A DNA stretch of 6,203 nucleotides from a virus: IMG/VR virus record IMGVR_UViG_3300045988_009266, positions 1 through 6,203 of that record. One strand, written 5' to 3'. Positions 1 through 6,203 of this stretch are shown piece after piece. Within the stretch, counting starts at the first letter, position 1; each line of letters opens with the position of its first letter. A model generated the notes under the pieces. It saw only the letters and a list, made by a program, of their open reading frames with translations. It was not told where the DNA came from and did no database searches. The position numbers and the translations under genes were made by a program.

Positions 1-99
1 GTTGAAAAACGAACTAGAAGTAAAATCAGTTAAAGGAAACGAAAACAATATAGCAACACTAGCGCTAAGAAAATTTCTAGAGCGATGCAGAAAAAAAAC
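1..99. repeat. Terminal redundancy, copy 1 (identical to 6105..6203); wrap-around of a circular contig
   Basis: Base-by-base comparison shows that gttgaaaaacgaactagaag...agcgatgcagaaaaaaaac occurs at both window ends with offset 6104. Confidence 0.97.
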
Positions 100-769
100 A
101 GGAAAGTCACTAAAACACTGGTGCGTAACCGAGCTAGGAGAAGATAGAGGAAGAATACATTTACACGGGATATTCTTCGGAAACCAGGCAGCGGAGTTAG
201 TAATTGAAAAATGGAAATATGGGTATGTATTCATCGGTAATTTTGTAAACGAAAAAACAATCAACTACATCAGTAAATATATGCTGAAAGATGACTTAAA
301 CAATAGAGAATTTACAGGGAAAGTGTTAACGAGTGCAGGAATGGGGAAACAATATTTCGAACGCGGAGACTGGGAGTTTAACAAATACAACGGAAAGAAT
401 ACAAGAGAATACTACGTATTCAAGAACGGTACTAGAGCGATGATGCCAAGGTATTACAAAGACAAGATTTACAGCGAAGAAGAAAAAGAATTACTTTGGC
501 TACAGAAACTAGATAAAGGTGATACATGGGTGATGGGGGAAAAGTGTAAGATAGATTCAGATGAATATAAAAATCTTCTAAGTTACTACAGAGAACAAGC
601 AAAACAGATACACGGAGACAATATAGCTCTATGGAAGGAGAAACAATACTGGCGAAGACTGGAAAAACAACGAAGTATGTACAAAAAACGAAGAAATATG
701 AATGAATATATCGACAGACAAACAGCAAAGAGAATAAACAACTACGAAATTGGGTGTTGTCCGTTCTGA
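2..769 (+). CDS. Rolling-circle replication initiator protein (Microviridae VP4 / gene A-like), C-terminal 255 codons. The 5' part of the same gene is at 5869..6104 across the circular junction.
   Basis: The frame is open from the window edge to TGA 767..769. HUH motif II is RIHLHGIFF (HLH at 158..166). Motif III has two tyrosines spaced as in phiX174 protein A: NYISKYMLK (Y at 266..268 and 278..280). The leading M in the ORF track is an internal TTG (Leu) codon, not a start. The reading frame is continuous with ATG 5869 once the 6104-nt circle is closed. Confidence 0.9.
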   Translation: MKNELEVKSVKGNENNIATLALRKFLERCRKKTGKSLKHWCVTELGEDRGRIHLHGIFFGNQAAELVIEKWKYGYVFIGNFVNEKTINYISKYMLKDDLNNREFTGKVLTSAGMGKQYFERGDWEFNKYNGKNTREYYVFKNGTRAMMPRYYKDKIYSEEEKELLWLQKLDKGDTWVMGEKCKIDSDEYKNLLSYYREQAKQIHGDNIALWKEKQYWRRLEKQRSMYKKRRNMNEYIDRQTAKRINNYEIGCCPF

Positions 770-824
770 CGCACGAAAGTTCGCCATGCTCGAGATTCTC
801 GCTGTACTCGACAGACACGAAGGT

Positions 825-837
825 GTTGCTTCGCAAC
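825..837 (+). other. Small hairpin (5-bp stem GTTGC/GCAAC, loop TTC) in the GC-rich intergenic island
   Basis: Perfect complementarity between 825..829 and 833..837. Confidence 0.4.
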
Positions 838-894
838 TCATTATTTTCCTCACGTTGTTCGGCCGTTCCTCGCTCTCCCAGCTCGTCACTTAGG

Positions 895-918
895 CACGCT
901 CGACCCGGTCGAGACGTG
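895..918 (+). other. GC-rich hairpin (10 bp with one bulged A, triloop CCG)
   Basis: cacgctcgac (895..904) pairs with gtcgag-a-cgtg (908..918), with A914 bulged. Seven of the ten pairs are G:C. Confidence 0.6.
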
Positions 919-933
919 TAACAGCATCAGGCT

Positions 934-955
934 GTTCTTTGTCTCGGCAAAGAAC
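934..955 (+). other. Perfect 8-bp hairpin GTTCTTTG / CAAAGAAC with 6-nt loop TCTCGG
   Basis: 934..941 pairs with 948..955. A T6 run follows at 976..981, but it is 20 nt away, so this is not a canonical intrinsic terminator. Confidence 0.6.
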
Positions 956-998
956 CAAACCGACCCCTTCTCTCATTTTTTATTAGCAATGCTGATGG

Positions 999-1022
999 AG
1001 AAGTGTTAAAGAAGTGTTAAAG
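999..1022 (+). repeat. Tandem direct repeat, 11-nt unit agaagtgttaa x 2.2
   Basis: The units 999..1009 and 1010..1020 are identical, followed by a partial third unit, ag. The repeat ends 12 nt upstream of the predicted -33 promoter element. Confidence 0.85.
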
Positions 1023-1033
1023 TCAGTCATTTA

Positions 1034-1065
1034 TTTGGTTGGCTTATGTTTTTGTATTATCTTTG
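1034..1065 (+). promoter_or_regulatory. Candidate Bacteroidetes-type promoter: -33 TTTG (1034..1037) and -7 TAnnTTTG (TATCTTTG, 1058..1065)
   Basis: Both elements match the published Bacteroides sigma-AB consensus exactly, with a 20-nt spacer. The predicted transcription start near 1072 would give a leader of about 43 nt to the first cassette ORF (ATG 1115). This is a motif match only. Confidence 0.4.
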
Positions 1066-1114
1066 TGGTGTGAGAAAAAGATAAACACCATTAAATAACA
1101 AAAAACTTACAATT

Positions 1115-1327
1115 ATGGAAAAAGAAATAGAAATAAGAGCTAAAGAAAGCGACTCATACAAGCTAATCCTCAAACTAGAATTAAACGAAGAGGACGAAGA
1201 GTTGTTGAAGAAAAGACTTCACTTACTTGCGTTATGGCCAAAATTAAGCAATGAACAGGGAGAAGTGATTGAAACAATATTCGGATATTATTGGTACAAA
1301 AATTGTGAAATCAATATAATTAAATAA
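1115..1327 (+). CDS. Hypothetical small protein (70 aa), first gene of the accessory cassette
   Basis: ATG-initiated ORF about 45 nt downstream of the predicted promoter. It is acidic and helical-looking (EEDEELLKKRL). Its TAA stop is fused to the next start in TAATATG (1325..1331). It is on the same strand as all hallmark genes. I recognise no family. Confidence 0.55.
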   Translation: MEKEIEIRAKESDSYKLILKLELNEEDEELLKKRLHLLALWPKLSNEQGEVIETIFGYYWYKNCEINIIK

Positions 1328-1328
1328 T

Positions 1329-1550
1329 ATGAATAAGATTTACAGCGTTTTAAGAATAGATGATTGGGGTAAAGCCCAATCAGTCTACGAAGGAAGAATT
1401 AGAGATTGTAAAAAAAGTTTAGAGACAATCGAAAAGGAATATCGACAAAGAGGCTGGGAGACAAAATTATACGATTACACGCTAATCATAAAATCAGCGA
1501 CATCAAATTACAAACAATATATCTACTTAATTCACGAACCTGAATTTTAA
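1329..1550 (+). CDS. Hypothetical small protein (73 aa)
   Basis: ATG lies 1 nt after the upstream stop, and the ORF ends in a second TAATATG junction (1548..1554). The composition is balanced and globular-like. I recognise no family. Confidence 0.55.
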   Translation: MNKIYSVLRIDDWGKAQSVYEGRIRDCKKSLETIEKEYRQRGWETKLYDYTLIIKSATSNYKQYIYLIHEPEF

Positions 1551-1551
1551 T

Positions 1552-1743
1552 ATGAGAAACAAGACAATAGCGGTGATTGCCGACAAAGAGACGGGAGTCA
1601 TCAAATCAATAGAAACAGAAGTAATCATCTTACAGAAGGAATTAGAATCTGAAATGAGATGGGAATGCATGGAAGCTATTAAGAGGCTTATAAACAAAAA
1701 GAAATACAAAATTATTAACATAAATACTTACTTTTATGACTAA
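1552..1743 (+). CDS. Hypothetical small protein (63 aa)
   Basis: ATG lies 1 nt after the upstream stop. The 3' end overlaps the next start by 8 nt (ATGACTAA, 1736..1743), which suggests translational coupling. I recognise no family. Confidence 0.5.
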   Translation: MRNKTIAVIADKETGVIKSIETEVIILQKELESEMRWECMEAIKRLINKKKYKIININTYFYD

Positions 1744-1930
1744 AGAACAGAAAGAAAAATTAATTACAGCAGTGGTTACATTCATCACCACAGTATTAAG
1801 CATCCTATTTTTACAGGCGTGCACAATGAGTATGAGTATCGCGAAAAACAATAACGGTACTTTTGAACAAAGACATGAAAACAGTACTAGTGTGGACAGT
1901 ACAAAGATTAATAACAATTTTAATAAGTAA
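1736..1930 (+). CDS. Putative small lipoprotein (64 aa precursor, about 36 aa mature); candidate lysis or superinfection-exclusion factor
   Basis: The N-terminus is MTKEQKEK (charged n-region), then LITAVVTFITTVLSILFL (18-residue hydrophobic h-region), then the lipobox-like L-Q-A-C with Cys29 at 1820..1822. A polar, Asn/Ser/Thr-rich tail follows. This is the signal peptidase II architecture read directly from the translation. Confidence 0.55.
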   Translation: MTKEQKEKLITAVVTFITTVLSILFLQACTMSMSIAKNNNGTFEQRHENSTSVDSTKINNNFNK

Positions 1931-1935
1931 AAATT

Positions 1936-2172
1936 ATGGAAAAAAACGGAATGAACCTATTCAGAATCGAAAAAACAAAAGTAAACGAAGAGGAAAGATT
2001 CGTAATTGTGTGCGGAAAATATCGCGCATCAAAAGTGGAATTCAAAACAAAAGAAAATGCAGAAGACTACATTGCAAACATGATAGATTGGGACATGTTA
2101 GTGACCATTGTAGGACAACTAAGCGAGTATATTGCAGAAAAAAAAGTAAACGAAATGTTAAATAATAAATAA
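1936..2172 (+). CDS. Hypothetical small protein (78 aa)
   Basis: ATG ORF starting 5 nt after the previous stop and ending 8 nt before the VP1 start. It has a balanced mix of hydrophobic and charged residues (FVIVCGKYRASKVEFKTKENAEDYIANMIDWDMLVTIVGQL). I recognise no family. Confidence 0.55.
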   Translation: MEKNGMNLFRIEKTKVNEEERFVIVCGKYRASKVEFKTKENAEDYIANMIDWDMLVTIVGQLSEYIAEKKVNEMLNNK

Positions 2173-2180
2173 GCAAGACT

Positions 2181-4193
2181 ATGGTTAAAAAAACTATCGG
2201 AAAAAACACGCTTGGGGATAACAACAAGATGAAAGTCGCTATGCGTGACTATGAGAGAAGTACACACAACCTCTCGTACATTTGGAGAAACACGCAAGCA
2301 CCAGGAACACTAGTTCCTTGCATGAAAATCTTAGCAACACCAGGTACAACATACAAGATTAAGGCAAACAGTCACATTCTAACACATCCTACTGTAGGAC
2401 CTCTATTCGGAAGTTACAAGTTTCAGATGGACATCTTTACGGTGCCTATCAGACTATACAATGCACTCCTTCACAATAACGCATTAAATGTAGGACTTGA
2501 TATGGCTAAAGTGAAATTTCCAAAATTTGCCATAACATTAGGGAAAGATAGTTCTAAAACTCCATGGAGCAGCAGCAGCCTATTAGCTTATCTAGGGTTT
2601 AGAAACAAGGGTCGAGAATTCTCAGATTCACTAGATTTCGTGCATAAATTTAATGCCATTCCCGCAATCGCATATTATGACATTTTTAAAAATTACTATG
2701 CGAACAAACAGGAAGAAAATTTCTACACAATCGGACTAGGCCAAACAGTAGAATTACCTTATCCAAATAATCAAAGCAATCCGATAAAAGTAATGATTAA
2801 ACCTGGGGGAGGGGCAGAATGGACTTTATCAAAAGCAAACTCAATCGATACTTATACCATAAAAACAGGATATGATTCTGCAATTATAGAAGTCGGGGAA
2901 TCCGTATTCCCTGCTAATGGAGATATAGAAGATTTAGTATTACTAGGTGAATATGGAGGGAAGCCAGGCAGTTCAACGCAATACGTGCAAATTACGGCGA
3001 AACAAGCAGCAGGAAACAAGAGAATCGAATATGCTAATAAAATCTGGCAGATACCATTCACTATAACAGACGACCCTAACAACAGAATATTTACGCTCAA
3101 AGCGATTAAAACATCAGGAGCAATTTCGCTAAAGTCTCATCCGTTAGAGGACATTGATAAGACTAGAGAAGAAATACTATCACTAGGCAGTCAAGAAGGG
3201 TTAATTCAATTCGAGAGAGGAAAAGGGAATATTACTCAAGAATACCTTAAAGACCTTATTCAAGTAGGATCAGAATTTTACAGCTCAAATCCTCAAATGG
3301 GACTAGTTGTAAAAACTTATCAATCAGATATTTTTAACAATTGGATTAATACAGAATGGATTGACGGAGAAAACGGAATCAATGCAATTACAGCGGTAGA
3401 CGTATCAGACGGGAAATTAGAATTAGACACACTGATTTTAGCGAAGAAGGTTTATAATATGCTGAACCGAATCGCAATCAGTGGAGGTACTTATAATGAT
3501 TGGATTGAAACAGTATATACAACCGATTACGTAAGTAGAAGCGAAATTCCCGAATATCAAGGGGGTATGTCTAGCGAAATTCAATTCCAGGAAGTTGTAA
3601 GTAATAGCGCAGCAGAAGGAGAACCGTTAGGAACACTAGCAGGTCGAGGAATTAACGTCGGCAAGAAAGGGGGAGACATCACAGTAAAAGTTACAGAGCC
3701 GTGTTATCTAATTGGTATATGCAGTATTACGCCAAGAGTAGATTACTCTCAAGGAAATGATTTTGACATTATGTTAGACAATCTTGACCAAATTCACAAA
3801 CCGCAACTTGACCAAATCGGATTCCAAGATTTAGTTACATGGAAGATGGACGCGAACCAAATTAAGTGGGTGAATGGGGTGCTAAAAGAGTATAGCGTAG
3901 GTAAGCAACCTGCGTGGATTGATTACATGACAAATTATAACAAAACATATGGAAACTTCGCTGTAGGAGAATCAGAGGCATTTATGGTCTTAAACAGAAT
4001 CTATCAAACAGAATGGGTCTCAAACGCCGGAAGCAACACGCCGAAACTGAACAGCTCAACATACATTGACCCGCAAGCGTATAACTATGTATTCGCAGAC
4101 ACAGACTTACAAAGTATGAATTTTTGGGTACAAATCGGATTCGATATCGAGGCTCGAATTGTAATGAGTGCCAAAGTAATGCCAACACTTTAA
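2181..4193 (+). CDS. Major capsid protein VP1 (Microviridae F-protein family), 670 aa
   Basis: Longest ORF in the window. As I recall them, the conserved microvirus capsid blocks are present: THNLSYIWRNTQAPGTLVP, FGSYKFQMDIFTVPIRLY, IPAIAYYDIFKNYYAN, PEYQGGMSSEIQFQEVVSNS, PLGTLAGRG, EPCYLIGICSITPRVDYSQGN, QPAWIDY and the C-terminal FWVQIGFDIEARIVMS. An alternative start at Met17 (2229) cannot be excluded. Confidence 0.95.
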   Translation: MVKKTIGKNTLGDNNKMKVAMRDYERSTHNLSYIWRNTQAPGTLVPCMKILATPGTTYKIKANSHILTHPTVGPLFGSYKFQMDIFTVPIRLYNALLHNNALNVGLDMAKVKFPKFAITLGKDSSKTPWSSSSLLAYLGFRNKGREFSDSLDFVHKFNAIPAIAYYDIFKNYYANKQEENFYTIGLGQTVELPYPNNQSNPIKVMIKPGGGAEWTLSKANSIDTYTIKTGYDSAIIEVGESVFPANGDIEDLVLLGEYGGKPGSSTQYVQITAKQAAGNKRIEYANKIWQIPFTITDDPNNRIFTLKAIKTSGAISLKSHPLEDIDKTREEILSLGSQEGLIQFERGKGNITQEYLKDLIQVGSEFYSSNPQMGLVVKTYQSDIFNNWINTEWIDGENGINAITAVDVSDGKLELDTLILAKKVYNMLNRIAISGGTYNDWIETVYTTDYVSRSEIPEYQGGMSSEIQFQEVVSNSAAEGEPLGTLAGRGINVGKKGGDITVKVTEPCYLIGICSITPRVDYSQGNDFDIMLDNLDQIHKPQLDQIGFQDLVTWKMDANQIKWVNGVLKEYSVGKQPAWIDYMTNYNKTYGNFAVGESEAFMVLNRIYQTEWVSNAGSNTPKLNSSTYIDPQAYNYVFADTDLQSMNFWVQIGFDIEARIVMSAKVMPTL

Positions 4194-4204
4194 TATTTTA
4201 TAAC

Positions 4205-4543
4205 ATGAAAAAAGTAGGAATTAATTACAGAAGCAAATTAGAAACAAAGCTAGTAGAAGGCGAAAGGCTTGAATTAAAAATTGACAGAATGACGCAAAAC
4301 AACGAACCTATCGGAGATAGCACGCCACTAATCTACACACCAAGGAAAGACGGAGTAATAGCAGCGTACGACATCCGTACAGATAAGTGGGATATTGCCT
4401 TAGATGCGATGGAGAAGGTTAATCGAACAAGAGGTAAGATATCAGAGCTAGGTGGTATGCGTGAAGCGAAGAAGAGTATTGACGAAGAAGCTAAGAAAGC
4501 CGTAGCCGACGGTGCAATTGATTCAAAAAATGAACTCAATTAG
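4205..4543 (+). CDS. Internal scaffolding protein VP3 (112 aa)
   Basis: The segment PLIYTPRKDGVIAAYDIRTDKWDIALDAMEKV resembles the conserved VP3 core of gokusho/alpa-type microviruses (..DIRTD.[FW][DE]IA..). I chose ATG 4205, 11 nt after the VP1 stop. The track start at 4124 would overlap VP1 by 70 nt and adds a Cys/Asn/Arg-rich stretch that does not look protein-like. Confidence 0.75.
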   Translation: MKKVGINYRSKLETKLVEGERLELKIDRMTQNNEPIGDSTPLIYTPRKDGVIAAYDIRTDKWDIALDAMEKVNRTRGKISELGGMREAKKSIDEEAKKAVADGAIDSKNELN

Positions 4544-4546
4544 CAT

Positions 4547-4675
4547 GTACCACTTTAGTGAGACAAGCTCATACGTGTGAAGTGAACGACCATTAAAACC
4601 GAAGATTCCGCGGGGACGCACGGCATAGATTGTCCAATAAGTTTACCGCGGAATCCTCTTTAAAGAGGGTGGTAC
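4547..4675 (+). other. Multi-helix structured intergenic element (candidate ssDNA replication/priming signal or structured RNA)
   Basis: P1 is GTACCAC (4547..4553) paired with GTGGTAC (4669..4675), 7 bp. P2 is GATTCCGCGG (4604..4613) paired with CCGCGGAATC (4646..4655), a perfect 10 bp, extended by GGAC (4614..4617) with GTCC (4632..4635). P3 is the palindrome CCTCTTTAAAGAGG (4655..4668). P2, P3 and the 3' strand of P1 abut with 0-1 nt linkers. I counted 42 G+C of 80 nt (52%) over 4601..4680. Confidence 0.65.
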
Positions 4676-4709
4676 GCACGTAGCATATATTATCTAGTTA
4701 TAATGTGGG

Positions 4710-4726
4710 GCTCTTTTAGAAAGAGC
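4710..4726 (+). other. Hairpin GCTCTTT / AAAGAGC (7 bp, loop TAG) 28 nt upstream of the VP2 start
   Basis: Perfect complementarity between 4710..4716 and 4720..4726. No U-tract follows, so I do not call it a terminator. Confidence 0.5.
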
Positions 4727-4754
4727 GAAATCAATGTAAAAAATTATTATTATT

Positions 4755-5867
4755 ATGGGATTTATCAAAAATGCACTAGGAATGATTGGCGATGCAGCCA
4801 CAGGGGGACTAGCAAGCGGAGTAGGAAGTTTTGTAAGCGGAATATTCGGAGATAGGGGGTTATCGAAGAAAGACCAATTAGAAATCATGAATAAACAGCA
4901 CGGGTATGAATTGGAAAACATGGATTACCAAGCGAAGCTTAATGAAGAGATGGCACAGAGAAACCAAGAGCGCCAAAACGAATACTTCGGAATGACAGCA
5001 GAATATAACTCAGCGAAAAACCAAAAACAACGACTGAAAGATGCAGGGTTGAATCCTGCATTAATGTACGGAAGTGCAGGAAGTGGCGGAGCAGGCACAG
5101 GAAGTACAGGAGGAGCAAGCGGAAGCGGTGTCGGATTATCACAAGCGCAAGCGGTAGGTATGGGACTACAACTAAGCCAAATCAAAGCACAAACGAACCT
5201 GATGAATGCGGAAGCAGCCAAAGCATACGCAGATGCAAACAAAACCAAGGGAGCAGACACAGACAAGGTGAACCAAGATATTGCAGAGAGCGAAGCTAGA
5301 ATCGAAGAAATTATAGCTAAGATACCTTCAGAAAAACAGCAATATTATATCGGCAAAGCGCATGAAGAGGCACTTAAGGCAAGTAAACTACTAACAGAAG
5401 CAGCAGCAGCCAAGACGGACGAAGAACGAAAGGTGCTAGCCGTCCAACAACATGTGTTGTTTAAAGAGGTTGATAAGATGGTTGCAGAAATCGAAGGAGT
5501 GGGATTAGACAACGATCAAAAGAAAATTATCAAAGATTCACTACAAAGAAGTATAAACTCTCATATATACCTGAATACAGCTCAAGCAATAGCAGCAGAA
5601 GCGAATGCTAAATTTACAAACGAAAACATAAAGACCATTGAAGGACAATTACAACTATGGTCAAAACAGGCTGAAAATTGGGAAGGTCAACGAGAGAATG
5701 TAAAAAGACAAATCGAAGAACAGGTTAAACAATGGGCTCAAGAAAACATGTTTGAAGGAAATAAAGTCAACTTAGAAAAGACAAGAACTATAGCAGATAT
5801 AATCCTAAGAAGCCTAGAAAGTGTTCAGAAAATTGGTCAGATAGTAGGAACAGCAATGATTAAGTAA
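4755..5867 (+). CDS. DNA pilot / minor capsid protein VP2 (phiX174 H-like), 370 aa
   Basis: The N-terminus is Gly-rich and hydrophobic (MGFIKNALGMIGDAATGGLASGVGSFVSGIFG). The motif KDAGLNPALMYG is followed by a poly-Gly/Ser/Ala/Thr tract (5070..5135). A long Ala/Glu/Lys/Gln-rich predicted coiled coil follows. Both the position immediately upstream of VP4 and this architecture are typical of microvirus pilot proteins. Confidence 0.85.
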   Translation: MGFIKNALGMIGDAATGGLASGVGSFVSGIFGDRGLSKKDQLEIMNKQHGYELENMDYQAKLNEEMAQRNQERQNEYFGMTAEYNSAKNQKQRLKDAGLNPALMYGSAGSGGAGTGSTGGASGSGVGLSQAQAVGMGLQLSQIKAQTNLMNAEAAKAYADANKTKGADTDKVNQDIAESEARIEEIIAKIPSEKQQYYIGKAHEEALKASKLLTEAAAAKTDEERKVLAVQQHVLFKEVDKMVAEIEGVGLDNDQKKIIKDSLQRSINSHIYLNTAQAIAAEANAKFTNENIKTIEGQLQLWSKQAENWEGQRENVKRQIEEQVKQWAQENMFEGNKVNLEKTRTIADIILRSLESVQKIGQIVGTAMIK

Positions 5868-5868
5868 T

Positions 5869-6203
5869 ATGTGTTTATATCCAAAATTAATTCCAAATCC
5901 TAAGTACAGGACATCTAAGAAGAGAGGGTACTACAAACCCTCTCCACATGATGCAAGACTGAATTATGTACCGGTAGCATGCGGGAAGTGCTACGAGTGT
6001 AGAAAAAAGAAAGCTAGAGAGTGGAGAATCAGACTAGCCGAAGAAATAAGGCACAACAAGAGCTATTTCGTAACATTAACGATTGACGATAATAATTTAG
6101 AAATGTTGAAAAACGAACTAGAAGTAAAATCAGTTAAAGGAAACGAAAACAATATAGCAACACTAGCGCTAAGAAAATTTCTAGAGCGATGCAGAAAAAA
6201 AAC
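5869..6203 (+). CDS. Replication initiator VP4, N-terminal part (true start ATG 5869). It continues into 1..769, and bases 6105..6203 duplicate 1..99.
   Basis: My translation is MCLYPKLIPNPKYRTSKKRGYYKPSPHDARLNYVPVACGKCYECRKKKAREWRIRLAEEIRHNKSYFVTLTIDDNNLEMLKNELEV..., with no stop to the window end. The Cys cluster CGKCYEC followed by W..R is typical of microvirus VP4 N-termini. Motif I FVTLT is at 6067..6081. The ATG follows the VP2 stop in a TAATATG junction. The full protein is 334 aa (236 + 769 nt). Confidence 0.88.
   Translation, partial: MCLYPKLIPNPKYRTSKKRGYYKPSPHDARLNYVPVACGKCYECRKKKAREWRIRLAEEIRHNKSYFVTLTIDDNNLEMLKNELEVKSVKGNENNIATLALRKFLERCRKK
6105..6203. repeat. Terminal redundancy, copy 2 (identical to 1..99)
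   Basis: Same as above. The repeat lies inside the Rep coding sequence, so it is not a biological terminal repeat. Confidence 0.97.

Follow-up and report, generated by a model that had tools for sequence, protein, structure and literature searches.

In the gut microvirus genome of IMG/VR record IMGVR_UViG_3300045988_009266 (positions 1 to 6,203; this whole stretch of 6,203 nucleotides (nt) is called the window below), the spacer in front of the gene for VP2, the DNA pilot protein, contains a real folded non-coding element on the + strand, and selection acts on it. What is widely conserved in this element is a stem-loop module of some 60 nt (4669-4730), present in single copy in more than a hundred related microviruses of a large clade. 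Our favored reading, held tentatively and at somewhat less than an even chance, is that the spacer carries the clade's replication-origin module, acting in the folded single + strand and preferably in a form nicked by the phage Rep protein. A preliminary description of this DNA had placed its weight upstream, on a multi-helix junction (4547-4675); that junction is confined to one lineage, whereas the signal at 4669-4730 is conserved widely. In viromes of the gut and of the environment, microviruses rank with the commonest phages, yet hardly any is known to have been cultured except members of the phiX174 and gokushovirus groups. Folded intergenic origins are already known in single-stranded DNA (ssDNA) phages, as are covarying hairpins in other uncultured microviruses; new here are the specific module, the breadth of its sharing and the variable position of the sequence that pairs with its conserved box. 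As the preliminary description had supposed, no such element defined for this group of microviruses was found in the annotations or papers searched.

Conservation and distribution of the module

More distant relatives, both those found through the upstream protein (45-58% identity) and those found through VP1 (42-50% identity), all retain a spacer of about 30-210 nt at this place. The junction is absent from these spacers, and what they share with the window is the 3' part of its spacer. In all, IMG/VR, GenBank and genome assemblies yielded 80 distinct sequences with the module in register, from genomes with VP1 42-50% identical to that of the window. Prophages are among the carriers (in Dysgonomonas sp. 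521, D. macrotermitis DSM 27370 and a Paludibacteraceae genome bin), and because these are Dysgonomonas and Paludibacteraceae assemblies, Bacteroidota are the probable hosts of the clade. The module is also present in GenBank microviruses sampled from animal faeces, a Florida spring and Antarctic cryoconite; in their records it is either unannotated or overlapped by a mis-started VP2.

The module pattern matches the window once, with 0.01 matches expected by chance. Close matches, with at most 8 mismatches to the 28-nt core, fall without exception on the gene strand, and each genome has them at a single place; repeated matches occur only in contigs that are longer than one genome or have terminal redundancy. 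All 27 exact-pattern matches in IMG/VR are in contigs of 4.1-8.1 kb, and the pattern search found no module in PLSDB plasmids. Outside the module, 82 distinct genomes have no widely shared 10-mer in their non-coding DNA: the module 10-mer GTACGCATGT is present in 40 of the 82, and the most conserved coding 10-mers of VP1 are present in 45 and 41. A 14-mer, GATTCCGCGGGGAC, gave mostly chance matches in IMG/VR.

Parts of the module

The unit reads rYG GTACGCAYGT RNNC TATATTATCAAGTA, then 8-12 nt, a hairpin, CGAAA, 0-100 nt and an ATG. Its parts in the window, and a motif just beyond it, are as follows:

4671-4682, + strand: the box, GGTACGCACGTA, core of the module; clade consensus GGTACGCAYGT
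4686-4698, + strand: AT-rich stretch, TATATTATCTAG in the window and TATATTATCAAG in the clade
4684-4689 with 4699-4705, + strand: hairpin HD, CATATA with TATAATG, one bulge, predicted in RNA folds
4690-4698, + strand: HD loop TTATCTAGT, AT-rich and conserved; clade consensus TATATTATCAAGT
4710-4726, + strand: hairpin H2, GCTCTTT, loop TAG, AAAGAGC; clade consensus CGCTTTT-loop-AAAAGCG
4726-4730, + strand: CGAAA motif, which closes the module
4733-4740, + strand: AATGTAAA motif, ATG then TAA, between the module and the VP2 start

In an alignment of 58 diverse sequences (A3) the TACG of the box is invariant and its G and C are at least 90% conserved. The CGAAA motif, found in nearly every spacer, has its C, G, A and A either invariant or conserved to 90% or more. 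Across the clade H2 has at least 11 different perfectly complementary stems, and all seven of its pairs form in 39% of sequences, against 3.5% when one arm is shuffled. The stems flanking the HD loop likewise differ by lineage and stay complementary: CTCT/AGAG, CCTGCTC/GAGCAGG, CATAT/ATATG, CACGTA/TACGTG and GCGTCTAC/GTAGACGC. For the window's own lineage, pair counts were made on an alignment of 20 sequences with 19 distinct rows (A4); there HD has no compensatory change and is paired in 77% of cells. H2, which the preliminary description had listed as a separate hairpin at 4710-4726, has compensatory changes in 3 of its 7 pairs in that alignment.

Several variants of the loop can be seen among lineages. 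The equivalents of 4693-4698 alternate between TATCAAGT and TATGAACT, a coupled swap of C and G; the GAAC form of this segment pairs with an upstream GTTC(AT), as in L139 (GTTCAT-TAAT-ATGAAC) and L161. In the CAAG loop the second base varies freely (CAAG, CTAG, CGAG, CCAG).

Pairing of the box and strand bias

In minimum-energy folds of 80 sequences, at least 5 of the 11 nt from GTACG pair to one side in 68, and the partner lies in different places: downstream in 25, adjacent upstream in 19 and distant upstream in 24, with 12 unassigned. When the partner is downstream, the AT-rich stretch is in the loop of a long hairpin (L147 GCGGTAC...GTACCGC; L141 GTGGTAC...GTACCAC; L168 GCGTCTAC...GTAGACGC; L166 CCTGCTC...GAGCAGG). 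Adjacent upstream partners are exemplified by L102 (GCGTACC-TTCG-GGTACGC) and L097. The distant class, with hairpins inserted in between, contains the window and, by our own reading, L013, L136, L103 and L094; in the window's lineage the partner is about 95 nt upstream (4572-4579).

Ensemble calculations give GTACGCA a mean pairing probability of 0.67, against 0.48 for random and 0.53 for GC-matched segments (p 7e-10 and 3e-7, values that are inflated by the phylogenetic relatedness of the sequences). Averaged over 78 sequences, the pairing probability is lowest over ATCAA (0.26-0.33), with paired segments on either side, and reaches 0.83-0.95 in the 5' arm of H2. The mean z-score of the module over 80 sequences is -2.2 with RNA and -2.7 with DNA parameters. 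RNAalifold, applied to a MAFFT alignment of the 58 modules, did not yield a consensus structure, since an alignment made on sequence only leaves the hairpin arms out of register, and per-sequence folds and anchored counts were used in its place. The fold is also strand-specific: with DNA parameters the + strand is the stabler in 56 cases and the - strand in 22 (p 2e-8), and with RNA parameters the figures are 43 and 37 (p 0.006); relatedness inflates these p-values too. The + strand has G.T wobbles and no compensating A.C.

A more speculative reading, which we think improbable, arises from these folds. Since the box apparently must be in duplex and can take its partner from either side, the module might be a single-strand conformational device of a kind that no database describes. 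In many sequences of the downstream class H2 (CGCTTTT...AAAAGCG) and the base of the long hairpin (AAGCG...CGCTT) compete with each other. These two structures, mutually exclusive in many lineages, might form a switch, either between nicking-ready and priming-ready states or between two states of an mRNA.

A candidate replication origin

The data show conservation, single copy number, strand specificity, a predicted fold and covariation; from the arrangement of the module we infer an origin role, Rep as its reader and a place for the nick. HUH enzymes (the Reps of CRESS viruses, relaxases, the TnpA of IS608, gpII of f1) read a hairpin duplex and cut the adjacent ssDNA. The module has the stem beside an AT-rich single-stranded loop, in single copy and on the displaced strand, that is general among stem-loop origins of HUH Reps. 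A Rep-recognized origin is favored because a duplex, an AT-rich strand 3' of it, single copy number and restriction to genomes with an HUH Rep together make the layout of an HUH substrate. In the proposed mechanism the GTACGCA box would be in duplex, with the AT-rich single-stranded stretch directly 3' of it, in or beside a hairpin loop. The HUH-type Rep (VP4) would recognize the duplex box, and would nick and religate in the adjacent AT-rich loop, with in or beside TATATTATC as the candidate place. The module would then serve as viral-strand (+) origin and as terminator of rolling-circle synthesis, and the second hairpin with CGAAA may add an accessory site, perhaps for priming. A partner for the box could be supplied from downstream, from just upstream or from far upstream, and in the window's lineage the loop between partner and box would have grown into a covarying three-way junction. 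That the module is a replication origin of one polarity or the other seems to us slightly better than an even bet; that it is specifically a (+) origin nicked by Rep is a tentative proposal, and the more doubtful of the two.

Comparison with characterized origins shows both likenesses and differences. Like the nonanucleotide hairpins of CRESS-DNA viruses, hairpin D of f1 gpII, relaxase oriT and the ends of IS608, the module sets a duplex beside AT-rich ssDNA, is single-copy on the strand that becomes single-stranded, and is in a genome that encodes an HUH-type Rep. Unlike them, it is unrelated in sequence to defined nick sites, has a variable partner position and includes a second hairpin and CGAAA, and its cleavage is a prediction. 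CRESS-virus hairpins carry TAATATT^AC. The (+) origin of phiX174 and G4 (30 bp, CAACTTG^ATATTAATAAC..., inside gene A) belongs to the same phage family and the same kind of Rep; the module differs from it in being intergenic, folded and outside the Rep gene. ATATTA, which lies just 3' of the nick in phiX174, is also in the loop of the module. A phiX174-type (+) origin (CAACTTGATATTAATAAC...) was tried as an identity for the module and rejected; ATATTA is all that matches on the + strand, and ACTTGATA is on the - strand. This 8-mer is part of TACTTGATAATATA, the reverse complement of the clade consensus loop (window 4690-4699, - strand), of which the window's lineage has the variant AACTAGATA. 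ACTTGATA is identical to the nick region of the phiX174 origin (CAACTTG^ATA) and resembles the nick site of pC194/pUB110. The match was treated as a coincidence because it is on the strand opposite the genes.

Several points weigh against a Rep-nicked origin in the folded strand. The best resemblance to phiX174, the 8-mer just mentioned, is on the wrong strand, and the phiX-origin-like 17-mer AACTTGATATTAATAAC is not found on either strand of the window even when 3 mismatches are allowed. As the phiX174-type origin is inside gene A and does not need a hairpin, the (+) origin here could lie within coding sequence. A partner 95 nt away is poorly suited to cruciform extrusion from the double-stranded replicative form; it fits free ssDNA, and therefore fits a complementary-strand origin at least equally well. 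The usual position of the module, abutting the VP2 start codon, also fits an mRNA role. A crude test of contiguous runs of box pairing was not significant, with nothing above background; in genomes so rich in A+T, a 6-nt partner is easily found for a random 11-mer once G.T pairs count, and this test was superseded by the ensemble pairing probabilities. The p-values are inflated by relatedness. Finally, the isolated gokushoviruses phiMH2K, Chp2 and SpV4 do not have the module, and no tested model system carries it.

The other polarity would be a complementary-strand (minus) origin, in which the folded module is recognized by host RNA polymerase, primase or a PriA-type primosome for priming. We consider this rather unlikely, though close behind a Rep origin, with which it could coexist in the same module. 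As is generally expected of minus origins, the fold of the packaged strand beats both shuffled and opposite-strand controls. The box is paired on either side, even from 95 nt away, which matters only in free single-stranded nucleic acid; the + strand-specific fold has G.T wobbles; the module lies between structural genes, as do the minus origins of phiX174 and G4; and the part upstream of it varies modularly among lineages. The primosome assembly site of phiX174, the G4 origin, the M13 minus origin and plasmid ssoA share with the module folded hairpins on the packaged strand in an intergenic region, and ssoA likewise joins a box at the base of a stem to a conserved loop motif. The module has no sequence similarity to any of these, however, and is far better conserved than the minus origins of related phages: those of phiX174 and G4 differ from each other while Rep origins are fixed, and the module is nearly invariant over very diverse lineages and environments. 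Signals read by the host also tend to be common to unrelated replicons of the same hosts, whereas the module is found only in microvirus-sized contigs and in no PLSDB plasmid. An ssoA-type origin, which has an RSB box and the CS-6 hexamer in its terminal loop, was rejected as an identity. For the CS-6 motif of ssoA, TAGCGT, there is only a look-alike with 5 of 6 matches, TAGCAT (4681-4686), which varies in the clade, stands at the RNNC position in A3 and is outside the terminal loop.

A minus-origin role has been raised for two other clades, and left unsettled, by Olo Ndela et al. 2022 (PMC9865509), who found intergenic hairpins with compensatory substitutions in reekeekee- and roodoodoo-microviruses and tentatively assigned them to initiation of the negative strand. 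Those hairpins are in clades other than ours and between other neighbors (Cap and Rep, or an unnamed gene and Rep). The text describes no box-and-loop module or second hairpin, and the present module spans a wider clade that includes prophages.

The box has also some resemblance to a site for the recombinases XerC and XerD. GGTACGCAT is similar to the XerC arm of E. coli dif, GGTGCGCAT; the AT-rich stretch starts with TTAT; and the variant TTATATAACAA, found in L147 and L151, is the XerD-like arm of the attachment repeats of Dysgonomonas prophages. Extra dif-like sequences have been described in some Bacteroidetes proviruses (Krupovic and Forterre 2011, PMC3091885). A dif-like site, for attachment in lysogeny or for multimer resolution, is nevertheless highly improbable. 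The idea, prompted by a resemblance to GGTGCGCATAA-N6-TTATG, was rejected on the position of the prophage junctions and on geometry: the repeats that flank L081 and L086, of AATGGTAATTATATAACAAA type, lie between VP4 and the small open reading frames (ORFs), with the module internal and intact, and in place of the 11-6-11 layout of a Xer site the center would measure 4 nt in some lineages and 8 nt in others. Moreover, the inner ATAA of the XerC arm is missing, the host-type XerC arm at the prophage junctions (AAACATAA) is unlike the box, and covarying hairpins are not a feature of Xer sites.

If the favored reading of the module as a replication origin is true, it provides a sequence marker for annotating and orienting genomes of this clade, a substrate for Rep, and a base for minimal replicons or vectors in Bacteroidales. 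D. macrotermitis DSM 27370, host of one of the module-bearing prophages, is a named culture-collection strain, and this makes the origin question directly testable.

The junction of the window's lineage

Upstream of the module the spacer of the window can form the following structures:

4547-4553 with 4669-4675, + strand: P1, a proposed and doubtful closing helix, GTACCAC with GTGGTAC
4558-4572, + strand: hairpin P2, GTGAG, loop ACAAG, CTCAT, opening with an invariant G.T pair
4572-4579 with 4675-4682, + strand: helix K, 8 bp, 5' arm TACGTGTG with CGCACGTA
4580-4603, + strand: conserved unpaired junction strand of 24 nt, AAGTGAACGACCATTAAAACCGAA
4604-4655, + strand: long hairpin P3, with a 14-nt terminal loop and a 10-nt bulge, AATAAGTTTA
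4604-4613 with 4646-4655, + strand: P3a, 10 bp, GATTCCGCGG with CCGCGGAATC, two CCGCGG cores
4614-4617 with 4632-4635, + strand: P3b, GGAC with GTCC, extending P3a
4656-4668, + strand: hairpin P4, CTCTT, TAA, AGAGG; the palindrome CCTCTTTAAAGAGG is at 4655-4668

All the helices quoted in the preliminary description are present where it had placed them. Its statement that they are contiguous, with linkers of 0-1 nt, does not hold, since the conserved unpaired 24 nt at 4580-4603 interrupt them. In the comparison with shuffled controls that it had proposed, the spacer folds better than dinucleotide shuffles, with -55.5 against -43.7 kcal/mol (z -2.84) for the whole spacer as RNA and a z of -2.77 with DNA parameters. 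For 4544-4683 alone the z-scores are -3.58 (RNA) and -2.34 (DNA), and for the sub-fold 4600-4670 they are -3.4 (RNA) and -3.1 (DNA).

Relatives with the junction are few and close. The spacers of nine IMG/VR genomes, retrieved by way of the upstream protein, are 92-95% identical to that of the window and that of one more is 79% identical; ten further members, 79-98% identical and several from human-gut assemblies, came from a metagenome collection. A search of IMG/VR with the conserved unpaired strand 4580-4603 as pattern found no further lineage, and with the metagenomes included it gave the window's own lineage plus chance matches. The junction is thus limited to one narrow lineage of about 20 genomes, near-identical down to 79%. 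In the printed spacers of other lineages, unrelated simple hairpins stand at its position. By our own reading some of these have like closures of other sequence: CTACATGC/GCATGTAG in L013, TTACATGCG/CGCATGTAG in L136, TTGTAGGT/ACCTACAA in L103 and ACCACA/TGTGGT in L094.

Within this lineage the structure covaries, in a test of the kind that the preliminary description had proposed. Of the cells in the 19 distinct homologues, 93.1% are paired, compared with 33-52% once the partners are slid, and 14 pairs are altered on both sides, against 0-2 in the slid controls. Compensatory changes are found in 4 of the 5 pairs of P2, and L010 and L245 retain a shifted form of this hairpin (TCGG/CCGA). The CCGCGG helix P3a has compensatory changes in 5 of 10 pairs and P3b in 1 of 4, with 100% of cells paired in both, and 5 sequences have U.G intermediates in P3. 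The palindrome P4 changes compensatorily in 1 of 4 pairs (T-A to C-G in L010 and L245). The 3' arm of P4, AAAGAG, is a repeat of the 3' arm of H2.

The 7-bp closing helix P1 fared differently. It has no compensatory change in its 7 pairs, 4 of which vary only by breaking (L010/L245, L005/L228), and it is largely lost in L010 and L245, the most distant relatives. The RNA minimum-energy fold uses P1 and the DNA fold does not; the latter uses K, which crosses P1. K also lacks compensatory changes, and is invariant apart from one unpaired cell, including in L010 and L245 where P1 breaks. From these alignments K is the better candidate and likely the true closing helix, and the 3' arm of P1 belongs to a box that is invariant for another reason. 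With K closing, P3 and P4 would form a three-way junction between the box and its upstream partner, and P2 would abut K.

Could the junction (4558-4668) instead have an activity of its own, as a structured RNA or DNA (ribozyme, aptamer or protein decoy) inserted beside the module and functionally separate from it? Covariation is strong in P2 and P3; conservation is higher in the terminal loop, the bulge and the unpaired strands than in the stems (ACGACC is among the many columns of the 4580-4603 strand that do not vary in A4); there is an invariant G.U pair in each of P2 and K; and the RNA fold has z-scores of -3.4 to -3.6. The restriction to one narrow lineage, and the simple unrelated hairpins at the same position elsewhere, which point to a tolerated expansion segment, make such an element very unlikely. 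Nor does it resemble anything catalogued. A cmscan of the whole window against Rfam at E <=10, a check that the preliminary description had proposed, gave four weak matches and no family in 4544-4754, and none of the self-cleaving ribozyme families of Rfam fits. ARAGORN found no tRNA or tmRNA gene. A tRNA-like fold was rejected, since the P4 loop has 3-4 nt and is not a 7-nt T-loop and 31 nt (4573-4603) separate P2 from P3. We read the junction as a lineage-specific expansion segment kept folded by selection and not as the functional core. Its conserved unpaired strands may leave room for an added function, and under the improbable conformational-device reading it might be a new structured RNA that controls VP2.

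Relation to VP2 and to transcription

The 3' end of the module is usually 0-30 nt before the downstream ATG (for example CGAAAATG in L147), and it is natural to ask whether it acts in mRNA, as a processing or stability site or as a leader that sets translation of VP2. The junction and the upstream hairpins could in this case be partial terminators or 3' stabilizers of the VP1 message. We judge an mRNA element unlikely overall. A case for it can be made from transcription. The Bacteroidetes promoter consensus is TTTG / TAnnTTTG, and the sole match to TTTG-N17-22-TAnnTTTG in the window is at 1034-1065, so a promoter of this type at the module was rejected. In relatives, 18 of 24 + strand promoter matches lie 0.35-0.45 genome lengths downstream of the module, a position that corresponds to the VP4/small-ORF region, and none lies at the module. 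As promoter matches cluster in this other non-coding region, the spacer is probably transcribed, and the pattern suggests a single transcription unit running through it. No sigma-70 promoter match was found on the + strand in the spacer, and an intrinsic terminator was rejected, no terminator-like site being called in 4100-4900; the + strand terminator-like sites of the window are at 825-837, 920-936 and 1020-1045.

The structures themselves give a divided answer on an mRNA role. Folded as RNA, the junction reaches a z-score of -3.6 for the + strand and -2.3 for the - strand; TTCG loops occur in some adjacent-upstream hairpins (L097, L102), and by our own reading of the spacers other lineages seem to have terminator-like hairpins, with a G+C-rich stem and T-run, just upstream of the module. 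Several lineages have the ATG-TAA motif after CGAAA. On the other hand, the advantage of + over - strand is greater with DNA than with RNA parameters, neither of the alternative folds hides the start codon, CGAAA is kept even 50-100 nt from the ATG (L148, L162), no Rfam family matches, and an invariant box of 6-7 nt would be unusual for an RNase site or leader. Another objection comes from L085, a Paludibacteraceae prophage, in which the whole module (9330-9440) is upstream of a 116-aa ORF before VP1, while VP2 is without a module and the VP3-VP2 gap (12362-12412) has only a G+C-rich hairpin. Because the L085 module precedes another ORF, we regard the module as mobile relative to genes and not tied to VP2.

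The AATGTAAA motif is found a few nt past CGAAA in several lineages with long-form spacers (also in L094, L099, L104, L111 and L013), and ATGTAAAAAT forms the loop of upstream hairpins in others (L094, L110, L111, L136). The two might represent a start-stop mini-ORF or a protein-binding motif.

Genome layout and spacer boundaries

The window corresponds to a single circular microvirus genome, about 6.1 kb long, with about 99 nt repeated at its two ends. According to the ORF list all its genes are on the + strand:

spanning the window ends, + strand: Rep/VP4, Pfam REP_ORF2-G2P match
770-1114: second non-coding region, 345 nt
between this region and VP1, + strand: five small ORFs
2181-4193, + strand: VP1, Pfam Phage_F
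4205-4543, + strand: 112-aa gene (from the ORF list), left boundary of the spacer
4755-5867, + strand: VP2, downstream of the module; PHROG pilot-protein families, E 7e-9

The non-coding spacer of 211 nt is as first described, bounded by the TAG of the upstream gene at 4541-4543 and the VP2 ATG at 4755. An alternative genetic code that would lengthen the upstream ORF was considered and rejected: past the TAG at 4541 there follow a TAG and then a TGA, five and six codons on. The claim that the spacer has no ORF longer than 11 codons was inexact, as an ATG at 4703 starts a 50-codon frame that reaches into VP2. This frame is unlikely to be coding, because in the alignment TAA immediately follows the equivalent ATG in most close relatives. 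A local G+C of about 52% is true of 4600-4683 only; it falls to 47.9% over 4544-4683 and to 39.8% over the whole spacer, in a genome of 37.8%.

A gene is indeed present upstream of the spacer where the preliminary description had VP3, and that name rests on position only. The 112-aa product matches no Pfam or PHROG family. Its homologues stand between VP1 and VP2 in every relative examined, and in Microvirus mar49, the one annotated relative checked, the homologue is called a hypothetical protein. The gene order in the classical gokushoviruses phiMH2K and Chp2 is VP1-VP2-VP3. In L001-L009 VP1 is 77-84% identical to that of the window, the 112-aa protein 92-96% and the spacer 92-95%, a contrast that hints at capsid hypervariability or at recombination near the spacer.

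The other non-coding region

The 5' part of the second non-coding region (771-913) has a G+C of about 54% and negative GC and AT skew. It is an indel among close relatives, being present in L076 and L038, absent from L053 and L071 and partial in L010; nothing in the phage collection matched it, and it is not more structured than its controls (z +0.6). A tandem 11-nt repeat, two copies of GAAGTGTTAAA, follows at 1000-1021. Ten-mers of this repeat are shared by at most 10 of the 82 genomes compared; we take those genomes to be the window's own lineage. The promoter match at 1034-1065 (TTTG-N20-TATCTTTG, + strand) is after the terminator-like hairpins and about 50 nt before the first small ORF.

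The direct repeats of the Dysgonomonas prophages are dif-like. They read AATGGTAATTATATAACAAA in one case and TAATAGTAATTATGTAACA and TAATAGTAATTATATAACA in the other, and are at about 8675-8694 and 14732-14751 in L086 and at about 2669-2685 and 8671-8687 in L081. At the homologous place in the window, just before the first small ORF, there is a similar sequence, ACACCATTAAATAACAAAA (1085-1104). Because of this resemblance to the prophage repeats, the phage of the window may be temperate by way of XerC/XerD.

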